NCBI GenBank assembly: GCA_021155985.1
Contig: JAJNBA010000005.1
Coordinates: 61,855 to 125,854 of the forward strand
DNA: 64,000 bases
Reading direction: 5' to 3'
From: Actinomycetes bacterium
GTDB lineage: Bacteria > Actinomycetota > UBA4738 > HRBIN12
In this document: positions 39,933 to 61,958 of the stretch, piece by piece
How the letters are laid out: the number at the start of each line of letters is the position of its first letter
How positions within the stretch are numbered: position 1 is the first letter of the stretch
Program-made: the position numbers and the translations under genes
The notes under the pieces: generated by a model
The model's database searches: none
The model's input: the letters and a program-made list of their open reading frames with translations, nothing else
Told to the model about the DNA's origin: nothing

Positions 39933-41147
39933 CTAGTGGGAGACGGCGGCGGCGGCGATCTCGGAGACGAGCTCTCGCTTCCAGAACCGCTCCAGCGCGA
40001 ACGGCGCGATCAGATCGGGGACCTGGTTGTCGGCGATGAGGTCGGCCATCGTGACGCCGACGATCGGTGTGGCTTTGAAGCCGTAGGTTCCCCAGCCGCC
40101 GTCGATCAGGAAGCCCTCCACGTCCGTGAGGCCCATGATCGGCGAGTAGTCGGGCGTCACGTCGCAGAGCCCTCCCCAGGCTCGCATGAGTTTCACCTTG
40201 CCGAGCATCGGGAGGAGCTCGAGGGAATGGGCCGCCGTGACCTCGAGGAAGTCGAGCGTCGACTCCTGCGAGTACGACGTGTAGGGCTCGATCTCCGAGC
40301 CGATCAACACCTCGCCCCGGTCGGTCTGCGAGATGTACACGTGCAGCGTGGCCGAGACCAGGATCACATCGAGGAAGGGCTTCAGCGGCTCCGTCACGAA
40401 CGCCTGCAGCGGGTGCGTGACGATCGGCGTCTCCACCCCCGCCATGCGGCAGACCTCGCTCGTCCATCCCGCCACCGCCGAGATGACGATGCCCGCGGCG
40501 ATGTCGCCCCGGTTCGTCCGGACGCCGGTGACGCGACCGTCGCGGACGTCGATGTCGGTCACGTCGGTGCCCTGATGGATGTGCACACCCATCCGGTCGG
40601 CCATCCGCGCGTACGCCCAGACGACGGCGTCGTGGCGGATCACGCCCCCCGGCGGGTGGTAGAGCGCGGCCATGATCGGGAAGTCGGGGTGGGTGGAGAG
40701 ATCGAGCTCCGGGCAGAGCTTCGCGATCTCGTCCGGGTAGATCACCCGCGAGTCCACGCCGAGGAGCCGGTTCACCTCTGCGCGCTCGTGCGCGACGATC
40801 ACGGCGCGCTCGGCATGGGCGAGGGTCAGGTGGCCCTCCTGGGAGAGCAGGAGGTTGTAATCCAGCTCCTGCGCGAGCTGCTCGTAGAGCCGGAGGGACT
40901 CCTTGTAGAAGGCCACGCCCTCCGGCGTTCGGTAGTTCGCCCGGACGATCGTCGTGTTGCGGCCGGACCCGCCGGCGCCGATGTAGCTCTTGTCGAGGAC
41001 CGCGACGTCGCGGATGCCGCGCTTCGCCAGCTCGTAGGCGATCGCGAGCCCGTGGGCGCCGCCGCCGACGATCACGACGTCGTAGGCATCCTTCATCTCG
41101 TGACGGCGCCACATCCGCCACGGCCTGAAGTACCGGATCGGGTGCAT
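39933..41147 (-). CDS. soxB: Heterotetrameric sarcosine oxidase beta subunit family (SoxB; could equally be N-methylglutamate dehydrogenase subunit)
   Basis: 404 aa from ATG 41147 (MHPIRYFRPWRMW...). FAD motif DVVIVGGGAHGLAIAYELA. ATGA overlap with the soxG stop. Confidence 0.85.
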   Translation of the reverse strand: MHPIRYFRPWRMWRRHEMKDAYDVVIVGGGAHGLAIAYELAKRGIRDVAVLDKSYIGAGGSGRNTTIVRANYRTPEGVAFYKESLRLYEQLAQELDYNLLLSQEGHLTLAHAERAVIVAHERAEVNRLLGVDSRVIYPDEIAKLCPELDLSTHPDFPIMAALYHPPGGVIRHDAVVWAYARMADRMGVHIHQGTDVTDIDVRDGRVTGVRTNRGDIAAGIVISAVAGWTSEVCRMAGVETPIVTHPLQAFVTEPLKPFLDVILVSATLHVYISQTDRGEVLIGSEIEPYTSYSQESTLDFLEVTAAHSLELLPMLGKVKLMRAWGGLCDVTPDYSPIMGLTDVEGFLIDGGWGTYGFKATPIVGVTMADLIADNQVPDLIAPFALERFWKRELVSEIAAAAVSH

Positions 41148-41773
41148 CAGCGCCAGCCTTCCGCTCGGAGGGCCTGCCACCCGGCCGGCGCGCCGCCGAG
41201 GCTCGTCACGATGCCCGAGAGCGTCTCCCACACGTACCGGCCGAACTCTGTGGCCACGAACACCTCGAGGAGGGGGAACGGGAGTTCGCGGCGGACCAGC
41301 AGCGCCCGGACCTCGGCGATCGGTGCGCCGGCCGCCGCGCCCGGCGGAAGGGTCGAGGGATCCCACGAAGTGGCACGCTGGACCACCTCCGGCAACGCCG
41401 GCCCGGCCAGCGCCACGCCGGCGAACAGGTGGGTCACGTCGGTCACCATCGCCCCGGCCCCGGCGACGGGTTCGATCGCCCGGATCAGCCTCCCTTCCGC
41501 GTCTGGCGCTCCGAGCAGCACCGCCCACTCCGCCGAGATCCGCGCGAGGACGGTGTCGGCCGGCGAGGGCAGCGCCTCCGGGATGCGGCCCCGGATGTCC
41601 ACCTTGGCGCGTGCCGTGATGTCCGCGATCGCCACGCGATCGCGGATCGCCGCGCGCTCCTCCGCGTGGTTCCCGTACGAGGCGGGGATCTCCCATCCCG
41701 CCTCCTCCACGAACACCGCCCCGCGGCGCGACGACAGCCGCGCCGCGGGTGAGCGCCGGATGGCCGTGCTCAC
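41147..41773 (-). CDS. soxG: Sarcosine oxidase gamma subunit family
   Basis: 208 aa from GTG 41773 (overlaps the soxA stop as GTGA). SoxG-like sequence ...VSTAIRRSPAARL...FGRYVWETL.... Confidence 0.7.
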   Translation of the reverse strand: MSTAIRRSPAARLSSRRGAVFVEEAGWEIPASYGNHAEERAAIRDRVAIADITARAKVDIRGRIPEALPSPADTVLARISAEWAVLLGAPDAEGRLIRAIEPVAGAGAMVTDVTHLFAGVALAGPALPEVVQRATSWDPSTLPPGAAAGAPIAEVRALLVRRELPFPLLEVFVATEFGRYVWETLSGIVTSLGGAPAGWQALRAEGWR

Positions 41774-44580
41774 GACCGGAGCCTCTCGCCGCGCGGGTCG
41801 TAGAACGGATCGATCCGGACCGTTCCGATCGTGTGGCTCCCGCCGAACTGGATCTCGAACGTGCTGCCGTCCGCGGCCCACTCCGCGGGCACCCACGCCA
41901 GCCCGACCACGCCACCGACGGCCTCGCTCCGCCTCGCCGAGGTGACCCGGCCGACCCACGCTCCCTCGCGCACCACGGACGCGCCTTCGGGCGGCAGCCA
42001 GCGCTCCGGCGCCGTGAACCCGACGAGCCGCTCGAGCGGGCCCCGCTCCTTCAAGTCGCGGAGCGACCGCAGACCGAGGAAGTCCTCCTTGTCGTCCTTC
42101 ACCATCCAGCCGAGCCCCGCCTCGTAGGGATCGGATTCGGCGTCCGTGTCCTGTCCCACGAGGATGTGCTGCTTCTCCAGGCGGAGGATCCGCTGGGCCT
42201 CCAGACCGAAGGCGACGATCCCGTGGGAGCGACCGGCCCCCATCACGGCGTCCCACAGGTGCTCGCCGTAGGCGGACGGGAAGTGGATCTCGTAGCCCGT
42301 CTCCCCCACGAAGCCGATCCGCAGCACCAGCGAAGGCACGTCCGCCACCGCCATCCTGGTCGCGGTCATGTACGGCATCGCCGACCCGGAGACGTCCGCG
42401 TCCGTGAGCGAGGTCATCACGTCGCGGGCTCGGGGCCCGGCCAGGTTGACGGCCCCGTAGGCCCCCGTCACGTTCAGGATGAGCGCGTCGAGGCCCCAGT
42501 CCGCGTTCCACCAGGTGATCCATCGTTCCAGCGCGGCCGTGTTCCCCGTCGTCACCGTGACGAAGAACTCATCGTCGGCCAGGCGAACGACGGCTCCGTC
42601 GTCGAGGATGACTCCCTCGTCGTTGAGCATCACGCCGTACCGGACCCGTCCCACGGCGAGGTCCGAGAACCGGTTCGGGTAGAGCCGTTCGAGGAGCTCG
42701 ACCGACTCGGGGCCTTTGATCCGGAACGTGCCGAGGGTGCTCACGTCGATCAGGCCGACTCGGTTTCGGACGGCGGCGACCTCCGCTTCGGGGGTCGTGT
42801 AGTGGTGAGGACGTCGCCAGTCCCCGGCCCACATGAACTCCGCGCCCGCGGCGACGTGCCGGTCGTGCATCGTCGTCTCCTTGCGCGGGGTGAGCCGGGC
42901 GCCGGCCAGCGTGCCCATCTCCACCGGTACCCACGGCGGCCGCGACGTGGTGGGCGACGTCTCGGCGAAGGACCGGCCCGTGATTGCGCCGCAGAGTCGT
43001 TGCGACGAGGCCATGCACGCCTTCCCCTGACAGGGGCCCATCGTGATCGTCGTGTAGCGCTTGAGGAGCTCCATCGAGTCGAACCCCTCGGCCGCGGCCG
43101 TCGTGAGCTCCTTCGCGGTCACGTCCATGCAGACGCAGGCGAACTGTTTCCCGGACGCCGCCGATGCCTCCGGCGGTAGGACGATCGGGTCTCCGGATCG
43201 AGCGGCCTCGCTCCGGAGTGCCGCGATCGACGCCGCGTCCACCGGGTGTCCCGATCCCGCCGCTGCCTCGAGACCCGCGAGCCTTCCTTGCGCCACGGAG
43301 GCCTCCGGAGAGCGGGCCCCCGCCACCGCCCCCACGGCCCACATGCGATCGGGCATCTCGTCCGGGAGGAAGGCCTGCAACGTCTCATCGAAGACCAAGC
43401 GCGCTCCGGCCTGCGCGAGGAGGTTCGTGGACGGCGTCTGCACGCAGGCGTTCACGACGAGATCGCAGGAGACCTTCTGCCCCGACGTCGCGCCGACGGT
43501 GCCGACGGACACGGCGCTCACCCGCCGCCGCCCGTGCGCGGACAGGATCGTGGCTCCGGCGAACACCGGGAACCCCTCCGGCCAGCCACCGTCGGAGCGG
43601 AGATCGACGACCGTCACCTCCGCTCCGGCGTCCTTCAGGGCCCAGGCGGTCGAGTAGCCGACGTTGTCGCCGGTGAGGACCACCGCCCGCCGGCCGGGGA
43701 GCACGCCGTAGCGGTGGAGCAGCAGATGCACGGCGGACGAGAGCATCACGCCGGGAAGGTCGTTGCCGGGGAACACCGCGGATCCCTCGACCGCCCCCGT
43801 GGCGAAGATCACGTGTTGGGCGCGGATCCGATACAGGGCGTCCGGCCCCGACGCCCCGATCAGCCCGCCACCGAAGACCCCGAACGCCGCCGTCTCCGCC
43901 AGGAACCGTGCTCTTGACCCGAGGGCTTCCCGCGCGAGCGCCGATCGGAGGGTGCTGCTCGCTTCCCCCAGGAGGTGGCCGCCGGCCTCGCGGCCCTGGT
44001 CGAGCAGGACGACCGATGCCCCCGCCTTCGCGGCCTCGGCCGTGGCCGCGAGGCCGGCCGCCCCGGCACCGATCACGAGGACGTCGGGGTGCAGGTTGAT
44101 CCGCCGGCGCCGCCGGTGATCGGGCTCCTGGGGCACCCTGCCCAGCCCGGCCTTCGAACGGATGTAGGGCTCCACGAGGGGCCATGCCCAGTGAGGGTGC
44201 TGGAAGATCTTGTAGTAGAAGCCCGGCGGCATCATGAACGAGAACGTGTTCAGCCATCCGTGGATGTCCCGGTCGGCGGAGGGCCATGCGTTCTGGCGTT
44301 CGACCCGCATGCCTTCCCGCGCGGGCTCGGTACAGGCGCGCACGTTGGGGATCCCGTCGATCTGCATCAGGCAGTTCGGGCACGAACCCGTCATGCACGA
44401 CAGCCCGCGGGGCCGGTGGTACTTGAACGACCGACCCGTGATCGTGACGCCCGCCGCCGCCAGCGCCGATCCCACGGTGTCCCCTTCGAACGCGGCGATC
44501 GTCCTGCGCTCGAGCCGGAACCTGATCCGCCGGTCGCGCCGGATCGCTTCGCCCTGACGCGCCGGGAGACGTTCGCTCAC
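41770..44580 (-). CDS. soxA: Sarcosine oxidase alpha subunit family
   Basis: 936 aa from GTG 44580 (GTGA overlap with the soxD stop). GDTVGSALAAAGV...SFKYHRPRG, NAD/FAD dinucleotide fold VLVIGAGAAGLAA, C-terminal folate-binding GcvT-like domain. Confidence 0.85.
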   Translation of the reverse strand: MSERLPARQGEAIRRDRRIRFRLERRTIAAFEGDTVGSALAAAGVTITGRSFKYHRPRGLSCMTGSCPNCLMQIDGIPNVRACTEPAREGMRVERQNAWPSADRDIHGWLNTFSFMMPPGFYYKIFQHPHWAWPLVEPYIRSKAGLGRVPQEPDHRRRRRINLHPDVLVIGAGAAGLAATAEAAKAGASVVLLDQGREAGGHLLGEASSTLRSALAREALGSRARFLAETAAFGVFGGGLIGASGPDALYRIRAQHVIFATGAVEGSAVFPGNDLPGVMLSSAVHLLLHRYGVLPGRRAVVLTGDNVGYSTAWALKDAGAEVTVVDLRSDGGWPEGFPVFAGATILSAHGRRRVSAVSVGTVGATSGQKVSCDLVVNACVQTPSTNLLAQAGARLVFDETLQAFLPDEMPDRMWAVGAVAGARSPEASVAQGRLAGLEAAAGSGHPVDAASIAALRSEAARSGDPIVLPPEASAASGKQFACVCMDVTAKELTTAAAEGFDSMELLKRYTTITMGPCQGKACMASSQRLCGAITGRSFAETSPTTSRPPWVPVEMGTLAGARLTPRKETTMHDRHVAAGAEFMWAGDWRRPHHYTTPEAEVAAVRNRVGLIDVSTLGTFRIKGPESVELLERLYPNRFSDLAVGRVRYGVMLNDEGVILDDGAVVRLADDEFFVTVTTGNTAALERWITWWNADWGLDALILNVTGAYGAVNLAGPRARDVMTSLTDADVSGSAMPYMTATRMAVADVPSLVLRIGFVGETGYEIHFPSAYGEHLWDAVMGAGRSHGIVAFGLEAQRILRLEKQHILVGQDTDAESDPYEAGLGWMVKDDKEDFLGLRSLRDLKERGPLERLVGFTAPERWLPPEGASVVREGAWVGRVTSARRSEAVGGVVGLAWVPAEWAADGSTFEIQFGGSHTIGTVRIDPFYDPRGERLRS

Positions 44581-44867
44581 GCGGGCGCGGCCTCCTGCTC
44601 CTCGTCCCGCGGGCGGTCCTGCGGCCGGTACGTCCGCCGGATCTCGTTCGTCGTCGTGTGCCGCTCCGCCAGGAACCACGCCCGACAGCCACTCTGGTGC
44701 ACCCACCACTCGGTCTGCCAACCGTTCACGTTCCGGCGGAAGTACAGGGCGGCGGCCAGTTCCCGGTCGGTCGCCGACGGGCTCGCGCGGCGGGTGGTCT
44801 CGCCGCCGAAGGAGAACTCGAGGGCCTCGCGCGGCCCGCAGTTCGGACACGTGATCAGGAAGGTCAC
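44577..44867 (-). CDS. soxD: Sarcosine oxidase delta subunit family
   Basis: 96 aa (track ORF 44577..44867), GTG start. MTFLITCPNCGPREALEFSFGGE...WQTEWWVHQSGCRAWF matches the SoxD zinc-binding fold. Confidence 0.8.
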   Translation of the reverse strand: MTFLITCPNCGPREALEFSFGGETTRRASPSATDRELAAALYFRRNVNGWQTEWWVHQSGCRAWFLAERHTTTNEIRRTYRPQDRPRDEEQEAAPA

Positions 44868-45222
44868 CCCGCTCCTCCGATCCCGGCCTCGTCCGAGCGC
44901 CGAGGACGCGCGTGAGACTATCGCGTCGCCACCTGGGCATGTACAACAGCCACCAGCCTGCCATCGCGATCAGCGCCAGCGGGAACAGAGGCCGGTCGGT
45001 GAGCGTCGCAAGCAGCACGACACCGAGCCCGATCGCGCTCCCCAGCACCATCGCCTGGATCCGGAATCCGCGCATGTCGCGCATCACGCCTTCATATTCC
45101 TCGGCGGGGATCTGACTCGTGTCCCATCGACGTCCACACGAAGGGCACGTCCAGGTTTCGCCGTACGGGATCCGCTCTACGGCCGTGCAGTCGCACGTCA
45201 CGGTGATCGGTGGACCCTTCAC
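44868..45222 (-). CDS. Possible zinc-ribbon / two-TM small protein whose frame has no stop before running into soxD (frameshift or artefact)
   Basis: First ~118 codons of track ORF 41770..45222: MKGPPITVTCDCTAVERIPYGETWTCPSCGRRWD... then two hydrophobic helices. High GC3 up to exactly the soxD start, after which the frame turns Arg/Pro-rich. Confidence 0.3.
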
Positions 45223-45371
45223 GTCGCGGATGGTACACGCCCCTTCTCACATGCCGTTCGGCGCAACCCGCTCAGATTGAACGCCTCGGTCACGTCGTGC
45301 TATACCGCCGCCAGCGGTTCCGGCGGCGCTCGGGGCCGGGAGGCCGAGCTTCCGGAAAGGGAGGGGGTCAA

Positions 45372-46895
45372 GTGGCTGAGGTCACGGCGCAGGCGACGAT
45401 CGAGGAACGCCAGCTCCTGAAGTCGCTCAACTGGTGGGACGGGTTCGTGATCGCCCTGTGCAATCCGGGGTTCCTGATCGCCTCCCTGGGCTTCACGCTG
45501 GCCACCGTGGGGGCGTTGGGCTCCGTGGTGCTGTGGGGTATCTCCGCGGTGGTGGGACTGCTGCAGAACTGGATCTACTCCGAGACCGCCGCGATGTTCC
45601 CCGACAAACCGGGCGGGATCGCGCTGTACGCACACGAGGGCTGGCGGAGGTACTTCAATCTCATCGGTCCGATCTCGGCATTCGGGTACTGGATCGGCTG
45701 GTCCGTCGTGCTGTCCATCTTCGGCAACCTGATCGGATCGCTCGTGGTGGCCGAGTGGCTCCCGAACTCGGTCGACACCGTGTTCTTCACCTCACCCTTC
45801 GACGTCGCGATCGGTCCCGCGAACCTGATCGGGATCGGGATCGTCGTCGCCGTCTGGCTCTTCAACATCTTCGGGGTCAAGCCCTCCCTCGCCGTCGGCT
45901 ACGTGACCGGCGTGCTCCTGATGATCCCGCTCGCGATCTTCATCGTGGTCCCCTACTTCACCGGGGACTGGCTGAGCTCGAACGTCACGTTCGAGGATGT
46001 CGCGTCGAACGGCGAGTTCAGCCTGTTCGGGATCTCGATGATGTGGTTGTTCATCATGTGCTGGTCCGCGTACGGGATCGAGGTGTCGGCGAGCTTCGCC
46101 CCGGAGTTCCACGACACGAAGCGTGACACGGCCCTGGCGCTCAGGTCGGCCGCCGCGTTCTCGCTGGCCGTGTACATCCTGCTCCCGTTGGGCCTCGGCG
46201 GCGTGGTAGGCACGGCGGGTGACTCGGGCGCGTACTACGTCGAGGCGTTCAAGTCGATCGTGGGGAACACGCTGGGCGGCCTCGCGATCGTGTCGCTGCT
46301 CGCGAGCCTGATCCTCTCGATGAACTCCGCGACGGCCGACGGCGGACGTGCCCTCTACGGGATCGCTCGCGACGACATGACGATCAAGTGGCTGTACCAC
46401 CTGAACAAGTACCACGTGCCCGCTCGCGGGATGACCGTGGATATGGTGGTGAACGTCGGGTTGATCCTGCTCCTGGGGGCGAGCAACCTCGCCATCCTGT
46501 ACATGTCGAACATCGGCTACGTGCTGGCGCACGTGTTCGCGCTCTCCGGGTTCCTGCTGCTACGGCGAGACCGCCCCGACTGGCCGAGGCCGATCAAGGT
46601 GAACCCGGTCTGGGTCGGGCTGGCGTGGCTCCTCGCCGCGTTCAATCTCATCCTGGTGCTCTTCGGCGTGACGCAGAGCGACCTGGCTGCGTTCGTCGGG
46701 TTCTACGAGTTCGCGGGCGCGCCCTTGTACATCGGATTGGGCGTCCTGATCCTGTCGGTCCTGCTGTTCTTCTACCGGCGGGTGGTCGAGGATCGGAAGC
46801 CCATCACGTTCCGGGATCTGGACGTTCCCACCATGCCCAACGAGGACCAGATGCGGATGCTCCGTGAGGAGGTTATGCCCGATCGACCCTCGTAA
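45372..46895 (+). CDS. APC-superfamily amino acid/amine permease
   Basis: About 507 aa from GTG 45372, which is in frame with track ORF 45210..46895, with a GGGAGGGGG Shine-Dalgarno. Twelve TM helices and APC family features. Confidence 0.8.
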   Translation: MAEVTAQATIEERQLLKSLNWWDGFVIALCNPGFLIASLGFTLATVGALGSVVLWGISAVVGLLQNWIYSETAAMFPDKPGGIALYAHEGWRRYFNLIGPISAFGYWIGWSVVLSIFGNLIGSLVVAEWLPNSVDTVFFTSPFDVAIGPANLIGIGIVVAVWLFNIFGVKPSLAVGYVTGVLLMIPLAIFIVVPYFTGDWLSSNVTFEDVASNGEFSLFGISMMWLFIMCWSAYGIEVSASFAPEFHDTKRDTALALRSAAAFSLAVYILLPLGLGGVVGTAGDSGAYYVEAFKSIVGNTLGGLAIVSLLASLILSMNSATADGGRALYGIARDDMTIKWLYHLNKYHVPARGMTVDMVVNVGLILLLGASNLAILYMSNIGYVLAHVFALSGFLLLRRDRPDWPRPIKVNPVWVGLAWLLAAFNLILVLFGVTQSDLAAFVGFYEFAGAPLYIGLGVLILSVLLFFYRRVVEDRKPITFRDLDVPTMPNEDQMRMLREEVMPDRPS

Positions 46896-46917
46896 CGATC
46901 CGTGATCCACCGGAGGA

Positions 46918-46947
46918 GGGGGCGCTCAGCCGCCCCCTTCTTCGTCC
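46918..46947 (+). terminator. Putative intrinsic terminator after the permease gene
   Basis: GGGGGCG-CUCAGC-CGCCCCC perfect 7-bp GC stem followed by UUCUUCGU. Confidence 0.45.
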
Positions 46948-47014
46948 CCGGAGCCCGGCGTTGCCCGCTCCGCGAGCCGCGCTAGCATGAGGCGGTTCCC
47001 GTCAGGAGGTCGAG

Positions 47015-48418
47015 ATGACAGACAAGATGTGGGGTGGCGAGCCGTTCTGGGGCCTCGGATACGACTGGGATCCCGATTGGGTCTACACGGACAAGCAGAA
47101 GGAGCTGCGCGCCACCCTGATCGAGCTCTGCGAGAAGGAGCTCCGCGCCAACGCCAAGCGCTTCGACGACGAGCTGATGTTCCCCCGTCGCAACCTGGAG
47201 CTTCTCGGCGAGCACGGCTTCCTCGCGCTGACGGTGCCGGAGGGATACGGAGGCCTGGGCGAGAACCACGTCGCCTACTCGATGGTCTGCGAGACGATCG
47301 CGCGGTACGGCTGCGCGTCGACCGCGATGTGCTACGTGATGCACATGGGCGCGGTGAACGCGATCATGCTGCGCGCCACCCCCGAGCTGATCGACAAGTA
47401 CATCCGACCACTCAACTCCGGCAAGATCGGCACGCTCTCCTACTCCGACCCCGAGACGGGCTCGCACTTCTGGTACCCGATCTCCTCCGGCGCCGAGCGC
47501 TCGAACGGCGGCTTCAAGGTTCGGAAGAAGGCATCGTGGACCACGTCGGGGGGCTTCGCCGACTTCTACGTCGTGCAGACCACCAGCCCGGATTTCTCCG
47601 GCTACGACGACCTGTCGGTCTTCGTCGTCGACGGCGAGCACATCCAGGCGCAGCCGTCGCTGTGGGATGCGCTCGGGCTCCGGGGCAACCAGTCGGGGCC
47701 GATCGAGATCGACAACATCGAGATCCCGGCGGAGCAGCTCGTCGGCCCGACCGGCGACGGCGCGAACTCGAACGACGAGTCCGTGGACCCCTGGTTCCTG
47801 GTGGGCTCCGCGTCGGTGTGGAACGGCCTGGCCCTCGGAGCGATCGACATCGCGAAACGCCACACCACGCGCAAGAAGCACGTCGATGTCGGACTGCGGG
47901 TGGCGGACTACCCGACCATCCAGGACTACGTCGGCGAGGCGGTGATGGACACGAACGCCTCGCGGCTGTTCACGCTGTCCGTCGCCCAAGCGATGGACGG
48001 CGCCACGGAGAACAACACGGTGAACCCCGGCCCGGGTGAGCTGGCCCGTGGGAACTTCCTCCACTGGGCGTGGCAGATCAAGTTCGAGGCGGCGAAGAAC
48101 ACCGCGCACGTCGTCGACAAGATGCTCCACGCCTGCGGGGGCTCCGGCTACAAGCGCGACATGGAGCTCGAGCGCTACCTCCGGGACGCGAAGGCCGGCT
48201 GGGTGATGGGCCCGACGAACGAGGTGCTCCGCCAGTTCGTCGGCAAGGCCGTGCTGCTGGGTTTCGACTCCCTCGACTACTGGAACCAGTCCTACAATCG
48301 ACGGGCCGTGGAGAACGAGGTCAAGAAACTCGACGCCGCCGGCAAGCGGGAGCTCGCCGAGCAGCTGTTCAAGGAGGCCGACGAGCAGGCGTCGAAGGAA
48401 CCGGCGGCCAAGGGCTGA
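47015..48418 (+). CDS. Acyl-CoA dehydrogenase family protein
   Basis: 467 aa. ACAD three-domain pattern (N-terminal helical, middle beta, C-terminal helical; ...YKRDMELERYLRDAK). GGAGG Shine-Dalgarno. Confidence 0.8.
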   Translation: MTDKMWGGEPFWGLGYDWDPDWVYTDKQKELRATLIELCEKELRANAKRFDDELMFPRRNLELLGEHGFLALTVPEGYGGLGENHVAYSMVCETIARYGCASTAMCYVMHMGAVNAIMLRATPELIDKYIRPLNSGKIGTLSYSDPETGSHFWYPISSGAERSNGGFKVRKKASWTTSGGFADFYVVQTTSPDFSGYDDLSVFVVDGEHIQAQPSLWDALGLRGNQSGPIEIDNIEIPAEQLVGPTGDGANSNDESVDPWFLVGSASVWNGLALGAIDIAKRHTTRKKHVDVGLRVADYPTIQDYVGEAVMDTNASRLFTLSVAQAMDGATENNTVNPGPGELARGNFLHWAWQIKFEAAKNTAHVVDKMLHACGGSGYKRDMELERYLRDAKAGWVMGPTNEVLRQFVGKAVLLGFDSLDYWNQSYNRRAVENEVKKLDAAGKRELAEQLFKEADEQASKEPAAKG

Positions 48419-48423
48419 GGCCG

Positions 48424-50763: not shown

Positions 50764-50765
50764 CG

Positions 50766-52639: not shown

Positions 52640-52641
52640 GC

Positions 52642-53988: not shown

Positions 53989-54012
53989 CTTTCGTGTCGG
54001 ATCGGGCCGATT

Positions 54013-55125: not shown

Positions 55126-55147
55126 GGATCCGACCTCGGCACCCTCG

Positions 55148-55582: not shown

Positions 55583-55611
55583 GACGTCCCTTCTGACCCT
55601 GATCGGTGGTT

Positions 55612-57015
55612 TCAGCCGGGGAACTGCCCGGTATCGGCGAGGTACTTCTGCATCATCGTCTTGATGTCCTCGAGCGTCTCCTTGTCCGTGACGCCGGGGA
55701 TGTAGTCGGTACCGGCGAGCGGCACCTTCGCCATCGCGGCCGCCTCCACGGTGAGCGCGCAGAGGTCTTCCGGCTCCAGCGAGTGGACGTCGGTCTTGCC
55801 GCAGGCGCGGGCGAGCATCTGGAGCTCCATCGTCATCGCCGTCAGGAAGTTGTAGACGCGTTCGGCTGCCGAGTCGACCTCGAGCCGCTTGCGCAGCTCC
55901 GGATCCTGCGTCGTGATCCCGACCGGGCACCGGCCGGTGTGGCAGTGGTAGCACTGACCGGCCGGCACGCCGACGGTGCCCTCGTAATCGGTGACCCCGG
56001 GGATCTCCTTGTTGCAGTTCAGGGCCATCAGCGCCGAGTGTCCGATCGCGACCGCCGTCGCGCCGAGGGCCAGGCACTTCGCGACGTCCGCGCCGTTGCG
56101 GATCCCGCCGGCCACGACCAGGTCCACCTCGTCCACCAGGCCGACATCCTCGAGGGCGCGACGAGCCTCGGGGATCGCGGCCATCAGCGGGATGCCGGTC
56201 TCCTCGGCGGCGATGTGGGGGCCGGCCCCCGTCGAGCCCTCGGCCCCGTCGAGGTAGATGATGTCCGGGCCGCACTTCGCGGCCATCCGCACGTCGTCGT
56301 AGACGCGGGCCGCGCCCAGCTTCAGCTGGATCGGGATCCGGTAGTCGGTCGCCTCGCGAACCTCCTGGACCTTCAGCGAGAGGTCGTCGGGCCCGAGCCA
56401 GTCCGGATGCCGGGCGGGCGAGCGCTGATCGATCCCGGCGGGGAGCGATCGCATCTCGGCCACCTGCTCGGTGACCTTCTGGCCCATCAGGTGGCCGCCG
56501 AGCCCGACCTTGCACCCCTGACCGATGAAGAACTCGCACGCGTCGGCCAGCATCAAGTGGTGCGGGTTGAACCCGTACCGCGACTGGATGTTCTGGTAGT
56601 ACCACTTCGTCGAGAGGTCCCGCTCGGGCGGGATCATCCCGCCTTCCCCCGAGCAGGTGGCCGTGCCGGCCATCGAGGCGCCCTTCGCGAGCGCCATCTT
56701 GGCCTCGAGCGACAGCGCGCCGAACGACATCCCCGTGATGTAGATCGGGATGTCGAGCTCGATCGGGTGCGTCGCGAAGCGGGCGCCGAGGACCGTCCTC
56801 GTGTCGCACTTCTCGCGGTAGCCCTCGATCACGAAGCGGGTCAGGGTGCCGGGCAGGAACATCAGCTGGTCCCAGCCGGGCATCGGCTTGAACATCGAGA
56901 ACCCGCGCATCCGGTAGCGACCGAGCTCCGACTTCACGTGGATGTCGTTGATGACCTCCTCCGTGAAGATGGGGCTCCGCCCCAGGACCTCCTTGCGGGA
57001 GGACACCTCCGCCAT
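55612..57015 (-). CDS. mgsC: Glutamate synthase-family FMN-binding domain protein (GltB domain-2-like; N-methylglutamate synthase subunit C-like)
   Basis: 467 aa. TIM-barrel FMN domain motifs (PIYITGMSFGALS, GEGG, LDGAEGSTGAGP, CHTGRCPVGI). Confidence 0.85.
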   Translation of the reverse strand: MAEVSSRKEVLGRSPIFTEEVINDIHVKSELGRYRMRGFSMFKPMPGWDQLMFLPGTLTRFVIEGYREKCDTRTVLGARFATHPIELDIPIYITGMSFGALSLEAKMALAKGASMAGTATCSGEGGMIPPERDLSTKWYYQNIQSRYGFNPHHLMLADACEFFIGQGCKVGLGGHLMGQKVTEQVAEMRSLPAGIDQRSPARHPDWLGPDDLSLKVQEVREATDYRIPIQLKLGAARVYDDVRMAAKCGPDIIYLDGAEGSTGAGPHIAAEETGIPLMAAIPEARRALEDVGLVDEVDLVVAGGIRNGADVAKCLALGATAVAIGHSALMALNCNKEIPGVTDYEGTVGVPAGQCYHCHTGRCPVGITTQDPELRKRLEVDSAAERVYNFLTAMTMELQMLARACGKTDVHSLEPEDLCALTVEAAAMAKVPLAGTDYIPGVTDKETLEDIKTMMQKYLADTGQFPG

Positions 57016-57043
57016 ATCGTCTCCTTCGGTCTCCGCCGGCGGC

Positions 57044-57835
57044 TCAGATGACGAGCTTCTTCTCGCTCGGCTCGAGGTTGTCGTAGTTGTAGAGCATCTT
57101 GCCGCACACGAACTTCTGGAACGCGGGTGGGGTCCCGAGGCCGTAGATCCGGAACTTGCGCTCGATCAGCTCGGTGTCGGCGTCGGTCCACTCCCCCTCG
57201 ACGCAGTCGATGCCGAGGGATTTCACCGATCCGGCGACGTAGATCTGGCCGTCGTACATCGAGTCGCCGAGGCCGGGGCCGACGTCGCCGAGGATGATCT
57301 GGCGGCCGCGCTGCATCATGAACGCGGTCATCGTGCCGGCGTCGCCGCCGACGATGATCGTGCCGCCCTTCTGGTCGATCCCGGTTCGGGCCCCGACGCT
57401 CCCGTGCACGACGAGGTCACCGCCGCGCATCGCCGCGCCCGTGAGGGACCCGGCGTTCTTCTCGATCACCACGACGCCGGACATCATGTTCTCGCACACC
57501 GACCAGCCGACCCGTCCGGTGACGGTGATCTCCGGGCCGTCGATCAGCCCGAGCCCGAAGTAGCCCAGGGAGCCTTCGTACCGGATCCGGCAACGCTGCA
57601 GGATCCCGACGCCGATCGAGTGCTTCGCGCCCGGGTTCCGCACGGTGACGTCGAGGATCCTCAGCTCGTAGAGCAGCCACCGGAGCTCCAGGTTGATCTG
57701 GCGGGTCGTCAGCTCCGTCGCGTCGAAGCTCGCCGCGGCCCCGTCGATGTCGGAGACCTTGGGGACCTCCGCGTGCGGCTCGGCGAGGCCGCGCGCGTCG
57801 TACGTGGTGCGCCGGGCCCCGCTCATCGTGTCCAC
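57044..57835 (-). CDS. mgsB: Glutamate synthase GXGXG-domain protein (GltB domain-3-like; MgsB-like)
   Basis: 263 aa. Beta-helix GXGXG repeats (GSLGYFGLGLIDG, GRVGWSVCENMMSG, GSVGARTG). 13-nt overlap with the mgsA-like gene. Confidence 0.8.
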   Translation of the reverse strand: MDTMSGARRTTYDARGLAEPHAEVPKVSDIDGAAASFDATELTTRQINLELRWLLYELRILDVTVRNPGAKHSIGVGILQRCRIRYEGSLGYFGLGLIDGPEITVTGRVGWSVCENMMSGVVVIEKNAGSLTGAAMRGGDLVVHGSVGARTGIDQKGGTIIVGGDAGTMTAFMMQRGRQIILGDVGPGLGDSMYDGQIYVAGSVKSLGIDCVEGEWTDADTELIERKFRIYGLGTPPAFQKFVCGKMLYNYDNLEPSEKKLVI

Positions 57836-58752
57836 ACGAGCACCTGCCCTTCGTAGGGATCCGTCGTCTCGATCTCGCGGTTCAAGACCGCGCGGATCGC
57901 GATCTCCTCCGACGCCATCGCCACGATGCCGTCGGACTCGTACAGGACGAGGGGTTTGGCGGCCATCTCGTCCTTCGCCACACCGAGCGCGTCCTGCGTG
58001 ACCGCCATGTAGGTGAACACGCCGTCGAGCTCATCGAGACTCCTGTGCATCGCATCCTCGAGGGAGTCGCCGTCGGCCATCTTCTCGGCGAGGTAGACGG
58101 CGATGATCTCGGAGTCGCACTCCGACTGGAACCGGTGACCGCTGGACTCCAGACGGCGCTTCCACTGGAAGTAGTTCGTCAGCTGCCCGTTGTGGACGAC
58201 CGCCACGTCGGAGAACGGATACGCCCAGTACGGGTGGGCGCCGGAGATGTCGACGTCGGATTCCGTGGCCATCCGCACATGCCCGATCGCGTGGGTGCCG
58301 CTGAACCCGCCGAGCCGGTAGAGATCCGAGACCTCCTGGGCGTCGCCCAGATCCTTCACGATCTCCAGGGAATGCCCGAGCGAGAGCACCTCGCACCCCG
58401 GCACGTCCTCGAGGTAGTCGGCCAGCGCCTTCATGTCGCCGTCATAGCGCACCGTCGCCCGGTAGGCGTATTCCGTCTCCCGCTCGACGCGATCCACCGA
58501 GGCGCCGATCTTGTGGAGGCGGGATTCCACCTCCTGGCGATGGCGCTCGAGTCGCTCCTTGAAGTCGAAGTCGCGTGGGTCGTTCGCATCGGCGAGCTTG
58601 AAGCGGATCACGACGAGCTCGGATGGCTCCCCGAAGAGCGCGTATCCGGACGAGTCGGGGCCGCGGTGCTTCATCGCCTGGAGCATGCGTGTCATCTCGC
58701 TCCCGACGTCAGATGAGCCGTCGCGATGGATGATGCCTGCGATGCCGCACAT
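57823..58752 (-). CDS. mgsA: Class-II (Ntn) glutamine amidotransferase domain protein (GltB domain-1-like; MgsA-like)
   Basis: 309 aa from ATG 58752 (MCGIAGIIHRDG...). Cys2 nucleophile and Ntn-amidotransferase core. Confidence 0.8.
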   Translation of the reverse strand: MCGIAGIIHRDGSSDVGSEMTRMLQAMKHRGPDSSGYALFGEPSELVVIRFKLADANDPRDFDFKERLERHRQEVESRLHKIGASVDRVERETEYAYRATVRYDGDMKALADYLEDVPGCEVLSLGHSLEIVKDLGDAQEVSDLYRLGGFSGTHAIGHVRMATESDVDISGAHPYWAYPFSDVAVVHNGQLTNYFQWKRRLESSGHRFQSECDSEIIAVYLAEKMADGDSLEDAMHRSLDELDGVFTYMAVTQDALGVAKDEMAAKPLVLYESDGIVAMASEEIAIRAVLNREIETTDPYEGQVLVWTR

Positions 58753-58817
58753 GGAGGGAAGAGCTCCTTTCTCGGTTCTTTGGTCGCCTCGTCTTCGGTC
58801 CTCGGGTCCTCTCGCTC

Positions 58818-60125
58818 CTAGGGAAGCACGTCCAGGTACTCGGCGACGTCCCAATCACTGACCGTCCCGATGAACCGCTTCCACTCATCCGTCTTGTAGT
58901 GCATGAACACCCGGTACATGTCTCCTGGGAGCGCCGTCTTCACCACGTCGTCCGCTGGGGGCCCCGGATCCAGGTTGCGGGCCAGTCCGTCCTTCATCGC
59001 CATCAGGAGCGCGGCGAACGACAGGTACGGGTTCACTGCCGAGTCCACGGACCGGTACTCGTACCGTCCGGGCGCCGAGATCCGCAGCGCGGTCGTCCGG
59101 TTCTGGAACCCCCAGTCGGCGAAGATCGGCGCCCAGAACCCCGCGTCGGCGAATCGCCGGTAGGAATTCACGGTCGGGGAGGTGATGCAGGTGAGCGCCC
59201 GGAGGTGCTCCAGCACGCCGCCGATCGCGTGCAGGCCGATCTTGCCCGGCACCCGCGGATCGTCCCCGTCGGGCATGAACATGTTCTCGTCGCCCTGCCA
59301 CAGCGAGATGTTGTGGTGGCAGCCGTTCGCGGAGACGCCCATGAACGGCTTCGGCATGAAGCACGCGAACGCGTTCATCTCCCTGCCGACCTGCCGGCAG
59401 ATCTGGCGGTAGGTCGTGAGTCGGTCGGCGGTGGCCTCGGCTTTGTCGAACATGAAGTTCAACTCGAGCTGTCCGGGCGCGTCCTCGTGATCCCCCTGGA
59501 TCATGTCGAGCCCCATGGCGTCGCCGTACTCCATCACCTTGTGGATGATCGGCTGGAGCTCGGAGAACTGGTCGATGTGGTAGCAGTACGGCTTGGTCTT
59601 GCCGTCCACCGACGGCGTGCCGTCGGGGTTCGTCTTCAGCCACATCATCTCCGGCTCGGTGCCGGCCCGGAGGTGCAGGCCCGTCTCCGCGGTGAACTCG
59701 TCGTGGAGCCGCTTGAGGTTGCCCCGGCAGTCCGACGTCAGGAACGCGCCGCCGTCGACCTCTTCCTCGCGGCCCCGGAAGAGCGTGCAGAAGACCCTCG
59801 CGGTCTTCCGGTCCCACGGCAGAACGCAGAACGTCTCGACGTCGGGGATGCCGACGAGCTCCCGGGCCTCCGGACCGTAGCCGATGTAGTTGCCGAGCCG
59901 GTCGACGAACAGGTTGGCGGTCGACCCGTACACGAGCTGGAAGCCCTTGTGCGCGATCGTCTCCCAGTGTTTGGCCGGGATACCCTTGCCCATGATTCGC
60001 CCGGTGACGGAGACGAACTGGTAGTACATGTACGTCACGCCTTCGGCCTCGATCTGCCGGCGAACCTCCTTGATCGCATCGTCGCGCCCGGACCGCTCCA
60101 CGAACTGCTCGATGTCGGTGGCCAA
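58818..60125 (-). CDS. gmaS: Glutamine-synthetase-family gamma-glutamyl-amine ligase (gamma-glutamylmethylamide synthetase / PuuA-like)
   Basis: About 435 aa from TTG 60125 with AAGGGAGG Shine-Dalgarno (MATDIEQFVERSGRDDAIKEV...). GS catalytic-domain motifs and beta-grasp N-domain VTYMYYQFVSVTGRIMGKGIP. The rest of track ORF 58818..61298 is noise. Confidence 0.8.
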   Translation of the reverse strand: MATDIEQFVERSGRDDAIKEVRRQIEAEGVTYMYYQFVSVTGRIMGKGIPAKHWETIAHKGFQLVYGSTANLFVDRLGNYIGYGPEARELVGIPDVETFCVLPWDRKTARVFCTLFRGREEEVDGGAFLTSDCRGNLKRLHDEFTAETGLHLRAGTEPEMMWLKTNPDGTPSVDGKTKPYCYHIDQFSELQPIIHKVMEYGDAMGLDMIQGDHEDAPGQLELNFMFDKAEATADRLTTYRQICRQVGREMNAFACFMPKPFMGVSANGCHHNISLWQGDENMFMPDGDDPRVPGKIGLHAIGGVLEHLRALTCITSPTVNSYRRFADAGFWAPIFADWGFQNRTTALRISAPGRYEYRSVDSAVNPYLSFAALLMAMKDGLARNLDPGPPADDVVKTALPGDMYRVFMHYKTDEWKRFIGTVSDWDVAEYLDVLP

Positions 60126-60287
60126 CTGACGCCTCCCTTCGGCGACCCTCCCGCGGGCCGGCTGGGCGCATCCTACGTCGAGTGCCCTGACCCGCGCCAC
60201 GCGCCGGACCTCGGTCCGCGGTCCGTAGGTGAGGGGTATCCTCACGCAGCCCCGGAACAGCCGGCGGGACCGAGGGGAGGCGAGGCC

Positions 60288-61958
60288 GTGAAGAGCGGGC
60301 TGGAGATCGCGCAGGAGGCCGTCCTTCGGCCCATCACCGACGTCGCGGCGGACGCCGGGATCCTCGGGGACGAACTCGAGCAGTACGGCCGATCGAAGGC
60401 GAAGGTCTCGCTCTCGATCCTCGATCGCCTGGCCGACCGGCCCGACGGCAAGCTCGTCATCACCACCGCCATCACCCCCACGAAAGCGGGCGAGGGCAAG
60501 ACGACGACGTCGATCTCGCTCGCCCAGGGCATGGGGAAGATCGGCAAGGACGTGATGCTGTGCCTCCGCGAACCGTCGATGGGACCCGTCTTCGGGATCA
60601 AAGGGGGCGGTAATGGAGGCGGCTACGCCCAGGTCGTCCCGATGGAGGAGATCAACCTGCACTTCAACGGCGACTTCCACGCCGTCCAGGCGGCGCACAA
60701 CCTCCTCGCGGCGGCTCTGGATGCATCGATCTACCACGGGAACGCGCTCGGGATCGACCCGGTCTCGGTGACCTGGCCCCGGACCCTCGACGTCAACGAT
60801 CGCGAGCTCCGGTACTCGGTGGTGGGGCTCGGGGGCAAGCTGCACGGCGTCCCGCGGGAGAACCAGTTCGTGATCGTGGCCGCCTCCGAGATCATGGCGG
60901 TGCTCGCGCTCTCGAACGACCTTCCCGATCTCCGGGCGCGGCTCGGCCGGATCGTGGTGGCCTCCACGTACGACGGGACACCGGTCACGGCCGAAGCGCT
61001 GCGGGTCGCCGGCGCGATGGCGGTGATCATGAAGGAGGCCATCAAGCCGAACCTCGTCCAGACGCTCGAGGGGCAGCCCACGCTGATCCACGCGGGGCCG
61101 TTCGGGAACATCGCGCACGCGAACAACTCGATCATCGAGGATCGGATCGCGCTGAAGCTCGCCGACTACGTCGTCACCGAAGCCGGGTTCGCCTCCGATC
61201 TGGGGTTCCAGAAGTTCTGCGACATCGTGTGCCGCATGGGCGGCTTCACTCCCTCCGCCGGCGTGCTCGTCACGACCGTACGCGCCACGAAGTCCCACGG
61301 CGGCATGCCGTTCGACCAGCTCGCGACCGAGGACGTCGAGGCCTTACGGCTCGGGATCGATAACCTCGCGGCGCACATCGGCATCGTGCGCGAGTACGGC
61401 CTCCCGTGCGTGGTCTCGATCAACGCCTTCCCGACCGACACCGGAAAGGAGATCGAGACGATCAGGGAGCTCGCGGGCGGCGCCGGTGCCGAGACCGTGG
61501 TGGTGAACCGGGCGTTCGCGGAGGGCGGCGCCGGCGCCACCGAGCTCGCCGAGGCCGTCGTCGCCGCGTGCGAGCAGCCGAGCTCGTTCCACCAGCTCAC
61601 GCCCGACGGCGCGCCGCTCAAGGAGCAGATCGAGGCGATCGCCACGCGGATCTACGGAGCGGACGGCGTCGACTACCAGGCTCAGGCCGAGAAGGACCTC
61701 GCCCGCATGGAGCAGCTCGGGTTCGGTGCGATGCCCGTGTGTATGGCCAAGACCCACCTCTCGCTGAGCCACGACCCGCTCCTGCTGAACAGGCCGACCG
61801 GCTACCGGCTCCCCGTCCGGGGTGTCGTGCCCAGCGCCGGCGCCGGGTTCGTGGTCGTGCTGTGCGGCGACATGCAACGGATGCCCGGCCTCGGCAAGAC
61901 ACCCGCGTTCATGCACGTCGACATGGACGCCGAGGGCCGCACCGTCGGCCTCTTCTAG
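60288..61958 (+). CDS. fhs: Formate--tetrahydrofolate ligase
   Basis: 556 aa from GTG 60288 with GGGGAGG Shine-Dalgarno (VKSGLEIAQEAVLRPI...). TPTKAGEGKTTT P-loop and strong FTHFS similarity throughout. Confidence 0.9.
   Translation: MKSGLEIAQEAVLRPITDVAADAGILGDELEQYGRSKAKVSLSILDRLADRPDGKLVITTAITPTKAGEGKTTTSISLAQGMGKIGKDVMLCLREPSMGPVFGIKGGGNGGGYAQVVPMEEINLHFNGDFHAVQAAHNLLAAALDASIYHGNALGIDPVSVTWPRTLDVNDRELRYSVVGLGGKLHGVPRENQFVIVAASEIMAVLALSNDLPDLRARLGRIVVASTYDGTPVTAEALRVAGAMAVIMKEAIKPNLVQTLEGQPTLIHAGPFGNIAHANNSIIEDRIALKLADYVVTEAGFASDLGFQKFCDIVCRMGGFTPSAGVLVTTVRATKSHGGMPFDQLATEDVEALRLGIDNLAAHIGIVREYGLPCVVSINAFPTDTGKEIETIRELAGGAGAETVVVNRAFAEGGAGATELAEAVVAACEQPSSFHQLTPDGAPLKEQIEAIATRIYGADGVDYQAQAEKDLARMEQLGFGAMPVCMAKTHLSLSHDPLLLNRPTGYRLPVRGVVPSAGAGFVVVLCGDMQRMPGLGKTPAFMHVDMDAEGRTVGLF

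Follow-up and report, generated by a model that had tools for sequence, protein, structure and literature searches.

The question raised by the 64-kb stretch of DNA analysed here (the window, from contig JAJNBA010000005.1 of an uncultured soil actinobacterium) is which enzymes might degrade trimethylamine N-oxide (TMAO) and related methylated amines in an organism of this kind. Methylated amines connect the cycling of carbon with that of nitrogen, and the known bacterial pathway for their use comes almost entirely from Proteobacteria such as Methylocella silvestris and Ruegeria pomeroyi, where it comprises Tmm, Tdm, DmmDABC, GmaS, MgsABC and MgdABCD. It is suggested here that a region of the window is probably a methylated-amine catabolic cluster, by which TMAO, and probably also trimethylamine (TMA) and dimethylamine (DMA), would be converted through monomethylamine (MMA) and the N-methylglutamate (NMG) pathway to glutamate-bound nitrogen and folate-bound one-carbon (C1) units that end as CO2, in uncultured soil Actinomycetota related to Thermoleophilia. 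The overall logic, from TMAO to DMA, MMA, gamma-glutamylmethylamide (GMA), NMG and glutamate, would be that of the proteobacterial pathway, with which the window also shares an orthologous Tdm, a TmoP-like permease, homologous MgsABC, a heterotetramer of the Sox/Mgd type and adjoining folate C1 enzymes. We regard the cluster as a variant of that pathway, with a non-orthologous GmaS, an orphan protein linked to the mgs genes and a strongly supported candidate methylamine monooxygenase of a new type. The initial annotation of this DNA had already proposed a catabolic cluster for methylated amines containing the NMG pathway, a Sox/Mgd-type heterotetramer and folate C1 enzymes, and this much is upheld, as are its gene positions and domain calls, on which gene calling by third-position GC and strong Pfam matches agree. 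The DNA has about 70% G+C and raw lists of open reading frames (ORFs) were swamped by spurious frames; genes were therefore called from third-position GC and frame continuity. Pfam and NCBIfam were searched with every protein encoded between 38.5 and 64 kb, and Pfam with those of the rest of the window; the domain matches in the cluster are all far above the Pfam cut-offs (Table 1).

The evidence that carries this reading begins with Tdm, a single chain in which an N-terminal DUF1989 catalytic core (153 bits) is followed by a C-terminal GcvT folate domain (GCV_T 230, GCV_T_C 74 bits). The fusion passes the cut-off of the NCBIfam equivalog model for Tdm (NF053776, 1161.9 bits against 1100), is 57% identical to the proteobacterial enzyme, and matches the solved Paracoccus TDM (9q59) with 898 bits. 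In Paracoccus TDM zinc is bound by three cysteines, C285, C301 and C365, and D220, F327 and D367 are substrate residues (PMC13619132). Alignment to 9q59 places the zinc ligands in the window protein at C278, C294 and C358 and the two aspartates at D213 and D360, while F327 corresponds to Tyr320, a conservative change. By sequence the fusion is thus TMAO demethylase, a known member of the methylated-amine pathway, which would split TMAO into DMA and formaldehyde and pass the formaldehyde to tetrahydrofolate (THF). A search of PMC12560246 for the substrate range or analogues of Tdm gave no match. In the initial annotation the fusion was one of several genes thought to interrupt the NMG genes, and a broader range of substrates, betaines among them, had been proposed on that account. 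With the fusion assigned as Tdm, the interrupting genes would rather extend the same NMG pathway upstream to TMAO and DMA, and not towards betaines. Two reference clusters were used for comparison, those of Rhizobium hidalgonense pPR19E02 and Paracoccus aminophilus pAMI6. On the Rhizobium plasmid the genes tmm, dmmDABC, purU, gmaS and mgs are all found less than 10 kb from tdm, so that tdm beside NMG genes is the normal organisation of methylated-amine genes.

A scan of the genome collection with Tdm gave at least 576 stretches encoding relatives. The best 80 of these were compared with the window proteins by tblastn over a neighbourhood of 10 kb on either side of tdm, and 52 of the 80 have full flanks. 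All but one of the best 80 loci belong to uncultured Actinomycetota/Thermoleophilia (Gaiellales, Solirubrobacterales and Thermoleophilaceae), the single exception being a record titled Bifidobacterium breve (L039), and the closest Tdm among them is 96% identical to that of the window. We found no paper tying methylated-amine genes to Thermoleophilia. The cluster had been described as an island. Its GC content is flat across the region and its composition is like that of its surroundings, while the gene order from fdhD to the glutamine synthetase (GS) gene is the same in the close relatives L008, L016 and L054, and in the first two of these fdhD flanks the cluster in the same order. Horizontal acquisition as an island is rejected on these grounds, and the cluster is a conserved, chromosomal and not a mobile feature of uncultured Thermoleophilia-like Actinomycetota. 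An APC-family permease, which would import the substrate, is present in 43 of the 52 full-flank loci. Its top NCBIfam model is the Methylocella TMAO permease (NF053774), on which it scores 211 bits, far under the cut-off of 690.

The second element on which the assignment depends is the NMG synthase. The three window proteins that had been read as an NMG synthase trio resembling GltB are 34% (MgsA), 36% (MgsB) and 54% (MgsC) identical to the mgsABC products encoded next to glnT on pAMI6, and MgsC is 52% identical to that of Rhizobium. The genes stand in the order A-B-C (amidotransferase, GXGXG and flavin mononucleotide (FMN) domain), unlike the domain order of GltB, and the trio is 65-94% conserved across 28-45 of the 80 related loci. 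The different order and this conservation argue that the trio does not consist of fragments of one decayed gltB gene, which is rejected, and the earlier reading as NMG synthase is supported by homology. Directly downstream of mgsC is an acidic orphan of 144 residues, hyp144, for which no match was found in Pfam, NCBIfam or PDB, a profile search included. Averaged over alignment columns, its identity across 18 genomes is 77%, and it occurs in 36 of the 52 full-flank loci, where it tracks mgsC and in Thermoleophilia always lies directly downstream of it. It is possible that hyp144 is an extra, fourth subunit, and MgsABC, probably together with it, would make N-methylglutamate.

As a separate observation, three loci (L061, L071 and L076) have a second mgsC, 77% identical to that of Rhizobium, and L012, L026 and L040 carry a GS gene 41-44% identical to canonical GmaS. 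This suggests that some Thermoleophilia tdm loci contain a second NMG set of proteobacterial type, possibly acquired horizontally.

Between permease and NMG synthase the window departs from the known pathway. With Rhizobium Tmm, DmmA, DmmB and DmmC as tblastn queries (E 1e-6) there were zero matches in the 64-kb window and the 80 loci, and the matches of DmmD were confined to GcvT domains, those in Tdm and SoxA. These uncultured soil Thermoleophilia-like Actinomycetota thus carry tdm and the NMG pathway without the two known monooxygenases near tdm. For many tdm carriers, the absence of DMA monooxygenase has been called a bottleneck of metabolism (PMC5520151). Where Proteobacteria have a Tmm of the flavin-containing monooxygenase type and DmmABC, the window has beside tdm a flavoprotein of the acyl-CoA dehydrogenase (ACAD) fold and an HpaC-type NAD(P)H:flavin reductase. 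In every one of the 74 cases among the 80 loci the ACAD-fold gene immediately precedes tdm on the same strand, with a median gap of 36 nt between aligned ends; it is present in 51 of the 52 full-flank loci, and the remaining loci without it are truncated on the upstream side of tdm. Across loci the protein is 79-99% identical to that of the window, where Tdm is 63-96% identical. The flavin reductase gene is found no more than 10 kb from tdm in 41 of the 52 loci; in 45 of 60 it is the downstream neighbour of tdm, 22 times on the same strand. Its best NCBIfam models are the reductases of two-component monooxygenases (HpaC, StyB and HsaB, about 130 bits, under the cut-offs). The ACAD and the cyclic-nucleotide (cNMP)-binding flavin reductase had been taken as mere interruptions of the cluster; they are not incidental, being instead the most conserved partners of tdm. 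We propose that the two are a candidate two-component methylamine monooxygenase which would replace Tmm and/or Dmm, oxygenating a methylated amine just before or just after Tdm. No paper was found in the literature that links an ACAD-fold or two-component enzyme to tdm. The pair is a concrete and clonable candidate for the missing step of TMA or DMA oxidation. Complete Thermoleophilia genomes, OY970162.1 and OY969768.1 among them, also have the ACAD gene paired with tdm.

The tblastn match to the reductase reaches into the cNMP region in 33 of the 74 loci with a match, which suggests that flavin reduction may be controlled by cAMP or cGMP. We know of no description of an HpaC-type flavin reductase fused to a cNMP domain.

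Several features of the ACAD-fold protein are in keeping with an oxygenase. The catalytic glutamate of the ACADs is gone, 'YEGT' having become 'MGPT' and the position of the IVD-type glutamate being Trp260, whereas motifs that bind flavin adenine dinucleotide (FAD), for example 'SWTTSGG' and 'GGSGY', are retained. The ACAD fold is also that of the group D two-component monooxygenases, among them DszC, the amino-sugar N-oxygenases DnmZ, ORF36 and KijD3, and isobutylamine N-hydroxylase, and the window protein shares with these the loss of the catalytic base that acts on acyl-CoA and the presence nearby of a separate gene for an NAD(P)H:flavin reductase. It differs from them in its low similarity (48 bits to DnmZ, 38 to the DszC model and 67 to SfnB) and in belonging to a clade with N- and C-terminal extensions of its own. 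No electron-transfer flavoprotein (ETF) or beta-oxidation genes were found near it in the Pfam scan of the cluster. A word-index search returned 1,498 relatives at E <= 1e-10, the best 120 of which are all at least 82% identical, and a search of 1.84 billion representatives likewise gave a tight family with a sharp fall-off. The closest outliers, 36-47% identical, are fused to a reductase module of the FNR type (FAD_binding_6 and NAD_binding_1), and in another outlier a gene for a FAD_binding_6 reductase domain is immediately downstream. A clade of 63% identity, reached by look-ups from the ACAD protein, is again found near tdm, a flavin reductase, GS, mgsABC, a DAO-family gene (DAO2, see below) and PhyH. 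Among 72,556 plasmids in PLSDB there was no close homologue (the best was 35% identical), so that the tdm plasmids of Proteobacteria offer no comparison.

Two contigs from ENA with a member of the 63% clade (L090 and L093) have an ABC transporter of the OpuAC type where the window has the APC permease, together with GFA (glutathione-dependent formaldehyde-activating) and Oxidored_FMN genes; gene calls in them are frameshifted.

Other evidence weighs against an oxygenase role. Both its sequence and a fold search place the ACAD-fold protein nearer to true ACADs than to the known ACAD-fold monooxygenases: it scores 118 bits with true ACADs and 48 with DnmZ, and among NCBIfam models 221 bits with FadE16, 128 with acryloyl-CoA reductase, 67 with SfnB, 53 with HsaA and 38 with DszC. 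Its nearest named family is the uncharacterised Rv1679/FadE16, for which 221 bits is well below the cut-off of 600, and the 'M-G/A-P' that stands in place of YEGT is found as well in generic, uncharacterised FadE16-like relatives. AlphaFold from the single sequence gave an unusable model (pLDDT 38), and from an alignment of 36 sequences one with pLDDT 69, for which the top Foldseek matches are only ordinary ACADs (TM score 0.66-0.69), a comparison in which dehydrogenase and oxygenase are not separable. In addition, Tmm and Dmm may be encoded elsewhere in these genomes, the search having covered 10 kb on each side of tdm, and the pair may act on either TMA or DMA.

If the pair is an oxygenase, N-oxygenation of TMA to TMAO in place of Tmm is the activity that we tentatively favour, possibly extended to the N-oxygenation of DMA; a DMA monooxygenase is possible though doubtful, and so is some different function. 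N-oxygenation has precedent within the ACAD fold in the nitrososynthases and isobutylamine N-hydroxylase. In M. silvestris tmm adjoins tdm, which we count in favour of TMA as the substrate, and on pPR19E02 the two genes are about 4 kb apart. Homologues also occur in animals, and this too speaks for TMA N-oxygenation. Three of the reductase-fused homologues are intron-containing crustacean genes, two from Homarus americanus (XP_042236428.1, P0125, and KAG7160971.1, P0143) and one from Notodromas monacha (CAD7277120.1, P0151; loci L084 and L086). They have the N- and C-terminal extensions of the tdm-linked protein together with a FAD/NAD module like that of cytochrome b5 reductase.

The closest alternative is that the ACAD-fold protein and the flavin reductase are the missing DMA monooxygenase, forming MMA and formaldehyde from DMA in place of DmmDABC, in cells that import TMAO and do not oxidise TMA. 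With permease, Tdm and the NMG module all present, the conversion of DMA to MMA is the sole step without an assigned enzyme, and the ACAD gene is the sole nearly universal extra enzyme. DmmABC are absent from the window and the 80 loci, and in 13 of the 37 full-flank loci with mgs there is no DAO2 and no PhyH gene less than 10 kb away. The characterised flavin monooxygenases of the ACAD fold, however, oxygenate heteroatoms (N or S) or hydroxylate aromatic rings, and we know of none that hydroxylates an unactivated methyl carbon. There is also no separate folate-binding protein like DmmD to trap the formaldehyde, and reductase-fused homologues exist in crustaceans, where the breakdown of DMA has no obvious role. 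A reading that goes further, and that we consider rather unlikely as a whole, is that the pair represents an unrecognised class of methylamine N-oxygenases which would form TMAO from TMA and possibly also the N-oxide of DMA (N,N-dimethylhydroxylamine), with Tdm demethylating these products stepwise and passing all of the formaldehyde to folate, so that both Tmm and DmmDABC would be replaced in the abundant Thermoleophilia of soil. If such a class exists, the reductase-fused homologues of lobster and ostracod, which hint that the same class of enzyme may act in animals, would be candidates for animal enzymes that make TMAO.

The last step of the NMG pathway could be performed by either of two enzymes. 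Four subunit genes of the Sox/Mgd type stand together in the order delta-alpha-gamma-beta (44867 down to 39933), so that the order BDAG given in the initial annotation has to be corrected to D-A-G-B, an order that is found neither in the proteobacterial pathway nor in the TSOX of Corynebacterium (1VRQ/1X31) and Stenotrophomonas (2GAG). The family and the four subunits stand as first described, the domains of all four TSOX subunits being present, whereas a choice between Mgd and sarcosine oxidase cannot be made from the sequences. All subunits with an NCBIfam sox match are under the cut-off (757 against 1164 bits on TIGR01372, soxA; 452 against 529 on TIGR01373, soxB; 83 against 116.5 on soxD) and the gamma-like subunit had no soxG match in NCBIfam. 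The alpha subunit is 32% identical to that of P. aminophilus pAMI6. The gamma gene follows the alpha gene in L001, L008 and L016 as it does in the window. On gene context alone Mgd is favoured: the setting is one of methylamine and not of sarcosine or betaine, in L005 soxD and soxA come directly after mgsABC on the same strand, and the sox genes of L036, L038 and L080 have tdm, GS or fhs as neighbours. The SoxDAGB-type enzyme would in this case be the NMG dehydrogenase, regenerating glutamate and yielding methylene-THF.

Against this assignment, the beta subunit is 44% identical (359 bits) to that of Corynebacterium TSOX, a real sarcosine oxidase, and 41% identical to the sox-family beta encoded near mgs and gmaS on pAMI6, which is itself 51% identical to TSOX, so that pairwise identity does not separate Mgd from sarcosine oxidase. 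Moreover, only about 7-10 loci have sox genes in the vicinity of tdm, and the mgs operon is tracked more often by DAO2, a divergent FAD oxidoreductase of the DAO family. DAO2 is present in 34 of the 52 full-flank loci and SoxA in 7, and the DAO2 gene often comes straight after mgsABC and hyp144. It is a serious alternative NMG oxidase; NMG, DMA and gamma-glutamylmethylamide are the candidate substrates. The label of a PuuB-like oxidase, which it had been given earlier, is supported as far as the DAO superfamily, there being no match to PuuB.

It is accordingly conceivable, if unlikely, that SoxDAGB is a true sarcosine oxidase and that DAO2 oxidises N-methylglutamate in this lineage. Besides the identity of the beta subunit and the distribution of DAO2, the first histidine of 'KHDH', the TSOX beta motif in which we place the histidine for covalent FMN, is kept in the window ('RHDA'). 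On the other side, soxD and soxA are in line with mgsABC in L005, and Pfam and NCBIfam scans of the window turned up no genes of betaine, dimethylglycine or creatine metabolism as a source of sarcosine. DAO2 itself has no folate domain, and its similarity to N-methyl amino acid oxidases is weak, the top PDB match being N-terminal and of 52 bits. We therefore retain NMG dehydrogenase as the favoured function of the Sox-type enzyme.

The ligase that would open the NMG pathway by converting MMA to gamma-glutamylmethylamide belongs to a clade of the GS family other than that of canonical GmaS. The catalytic residues of GmaS are Asp177 and Glu186, with Asn188 also implicated, and the flap residue of RhGmaS is Trp300 (PMC7948447). 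In the window ligase the flap glutamate of GS ('PGYEAP') is likewise replaced by tryptophan ('AGFWAP', compare W300 of RhGmaS), and the 'HHE...EVD' of GS reads 'DHE...ELN', which by motif pattern would correspond to D177, E186 and N188 of GmaS. Over this region QGDHEDAPGQLELN of the window matches QIDHEDANGQFEIN of 9qur, where GS has 'SHHEV...HEVD'. At the ammonium-binding loop residue Asp50' (Ala48' in RhGmaS) the window 'FVDR' aligns with GS 'YFDG' and the aspartate is possibly kept; the GmaS of 9qur is deleted here. With Trp for the flap Glu and 'DHE' for 'HHE', housekeeping GlnA is ruled out. A canonical GmaS orthologue is ruled out as well, the ligase scoring 269 bits on TIGR03105 ('type III glutamate-ammonia ligase', glnT; cut-off 469.6), being 28-30% identical to the canonical GmaS of Rhizobium and P. 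aminophilus, and falling outside the GmaS clade in a neighbour-joining tree without bootstrap. In that tree it forms one clade with 21 Thermoleophilia sequences from the related loci, sister to an IpuC-like group, and 20 of these 21 members adjoin mgs genes, as the window ligase does. The name gmaS that the gene had received would thus be correct by function and context and incorrect by orthology, and we conclude from active-site residues and gene context that the ligase is probably a functional GmaS of independent origin among the gamma-glutamyl-amine ligases. The usual gmaS marker targets the canonical clade and would miss these organisms.

What weighs against a GmaS function is the score below the model cut-off and the company of the nearest annotated relatives, which are 42-46% identical and lie in Ipu/Puu-like alkylamine clusters of Paracoccus (TOH), Ruegeria and Rhodococcus (a plasmid of R. 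opacus). It would follow from these that the cluster chiefly degrades larger primary amines or polyamines by gamma-glutamylation in the manner of the Ipu and Puu pathways and not methylamine, a view that we consider improbable. The relatives cluster with aldehyde dehydrogenases, P450/ferredoxin genes and PuuD-like hydrolases, and the window operon does contain a PuuD/IpuF-like hydrolase of the C26 type and a DAO oxidase. The Pfam scan of the cluster found no aldehyde dehydrogenase, P450 or aminotransferase genes, however, and the ligase gene is followed by mgsABC where the Ipu/Puu clusters have aldehyde dehydrogenase and P450. The hydrolase differs from its counterparts in being fused to a VOC domain, an arrangement found in close relatives only; compared with PuuA-D of the Puu pathway, it scores 71 bits on the PuuD model (NF008471, cut-off 266) and occurs in just 9 of the 52 loci, chiefly close relatives, and the DAO protein lacks a PuuB match. 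Tdm, finally, would supply methylated amines as substrates. A role in the conversion of MMA thus remains the preferred reading for the ligase. Least probable of all is that the ACAD-fold gene encodes an ordinary acyl-CoA dehydrogenase and neighbours tdm by chance, as its best sequence and fold matches and intact FAD motifs might suggest, given the pairing with tdm across the orders of Thermoleophilia and again in the 63% clade, the lost catalytic glutamate, the relatives fused to reductases and the lack of ETF and beta-oxidation genes nearby.

At the C1 end of the pathway, Fhs scores 773 bits on NF010030 (cut-off 652) and, with the FTCD_C protein, would carry C1 units to formate. The latter reaches 161 bits on the FchA model NF045657, under the cut-off of 275. 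Its gene follows one that resembles a formiminotransferase and is maybe for this reason one half of a split FtcD; the two may together be a split formiminotransferase-cyclodeaminase and not the FchA of methylotrophs. A point against the proposed route is that no methylene-THF dehydrogenase was seen in the window. Formate would be oxidised to CO2 by an NAD-linked formate dehydrogenase encoded beside the cluster, which would make the route from methyl groups to CO2 complete. In its molybdenum subunit an in-frame TGA lies within the motif SCNRT-U-HAPSVVG (U at the TGA), with a match of 530 bits to TIGR01591 after the TGA, while the 83 residues before it match positions 1-79 of the Molybdopterin profile; the subunit is thus probably a selenoprotein.

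The gene for the alpha subunit of this enzyme, fdhA, is split and permuted, its N-terminal Fe-S module being a gene of its own downstream of the NuoE/NuoF fusion. The last 50 residues of the module correspond to positions 1-50 of the Fdh-alpha profile.

Table 1. Features of the window, with positions counted from its first letter
Feature	Position	Strand	Basis or remark
Two adjoining phosphofructokinase-family genes, 382 and 342 aa	24184-26391	-	Pfam PFK 226 and 350 bits
MobA-like molybdenum cofactor guanylyltransferase	32210-32890	-	NTP_transf_3 114 bits; TIGR02665 83 bits, under cut-off
Fe-S module of formate dehydrogenase alpha, separate gene	32805-33760	-	2Fe-2S, 4Fe-4S, Molybdop_Fe4S4
NuoE/NuoF-type diaphorase subunit of NAD-linked formate dehydrogenase	33764-35626	-	Complex1_51K, 2Fe-2S_thioredx, NADH_4Fe-4S; nuoF_fam 444 bits
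Formate dehydrogenase molybdenum subunit	35694-37631	-	In-frame TGA 37380-37382 at selenocysteine position
FdhD, formate dehydrogenase sulfurtransferase	38555-39865	-	NF001943 314 bits, above 269 cut-off
Sox/Mgd-type beta subunit, 404 aa	39933-41147	-	DAO domain 228 bits
Sox/Mgd-type gamma-like subunit, 208 aa	41147-41773	-	GCV_T fold 66.8 bits
Sox/Mgd-type alpha subunit, 936 aa	41770-44580	-	Fer2_4, NAD/FAD fold, SO_alpha_A3, GcvT folate domains
Sox/Mgd-type delta subunit, 96 aa	44577-44867	-	SoxD 93 bits
c5, small Zn-ribbon protein with two transmembrane helices	44868-45222	-	Divergent from permease gene
APC-family permease, TmoP-like, 507 aa	45372-46895	+	AA_permease_2 128 bits
ACAD-fold flavoprotein, 467 aa; candidate oxygenase of methylamine monooxygenase	47015-48418	+	ACAD N, M and C domains (Pfam)
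Tdm, TMAO demethylase, 779 aa	48424-50763	+	DUF1989 + GCV_T + GCV_T_C
PhyH-family Fe(II)/2-oxoglutarate dioxygenase, 292 aa	50766-51644	+	PhyH 82 bits
NAD(P)H:flavin reductase (HpaC/StyB type) with cyclic-nucleotide-binding domain, 326 aa	51659-52639	-	Flavin_Reduct 126 bits, cNMP_binding 74 bits
DAO2, divergent DAO-family FAD oxidoreductase, 448 aa	52642-53988	-	DAO domain over residues 13-233 only
Gamma-glutamyl-amide hydrolase (Peptidase_C26, PuuD/IpuF-like) fused to VOC/glyoxalase domain, 370 aa	54013-55125	-	Peptidase_C26 170 bits, Glyoxalase_6 87 bits
hyp144, conserved acidic orphan, 144 aa	55148-55582	-	Between mgsC and C26 hydrolase gene
NMG synthase subunit C-like, FMN glutamate-synthase domain, 467 aa	55612-57015	-	Glu_synthase 306 bits
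NMG synthase subunit B-like, GXGXG, 260 aa	57044-57826	-	GXGXG 53.5 bits
NMG synthase subunit A-like, class-II amidotransferase, 309 aa	57823-58752	-	GATase_6, GATase_7
GS-family gamma-glutamyl-amine ligase, predicted gamma-glutamylmethylamide synthetase of non-canonical clade, 435 aa	58818-60125	-	Gln-synt_C 244 bits
Fhs, formate-tetrahydrofolate ligase, 556 aa	60288-61958	+	FTHFS 804 bits
Hydrophobic ORF, 118 aa	62317-62673	+	High third-position GC; no family match
Stand-alone Glyoxalase_6 (VOC) gene	62684-63118	-	Between fhs and FTCD_C gene
FTCD_C protein, 210 aa; FchA-like methenyl-THF cyclohydrolase or formimino-THF cyclodeaminase	63169-63801	-	FTCD_C 192 bits
Formiminotransferase-like, C-terminal 53 aa, cut by window end	63842-64000	-	Pfam FTCD E 0.004, weak

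Compared with the proteobacterial pathway the window has, besides the 144-residue gene after mgsC, genes for DAO2, a PhyH protein and the C26-VOC hydrolase, and we propose that the last three encode accessory enzymes. The PhyH protein, for which no NCBIfam family matched, occurs in 25 of the 52 full-flank loci, often in the order ACAD, Tdm, PhyH. The small zinc-ribbon protein c5 has a homologue paired divergently with the APC permease in 40 of the 80 related loci. In the window c5 diverges from its relatives after 'YMPRWRR', with no stop codon before the soxD/soxA region, and its divergent C-terminus may reflect a frameshift, an error in the sequencing or a genuine change.

An Rfam search of the window matched no family, and a scan of it for promoters and terminators gave sites no more numerous than expected by chance. 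By Pfam, the genes in the first 32 kb of the window are housekeeping genes with no relation to the cluster. Outside the cluster there are also two adjoining genes of the phosphofructokinase family, and beyond fhs a short hydrophobic ORF and a stand-alone Glyoxalase_6 gene precede the FTCD_C gene.

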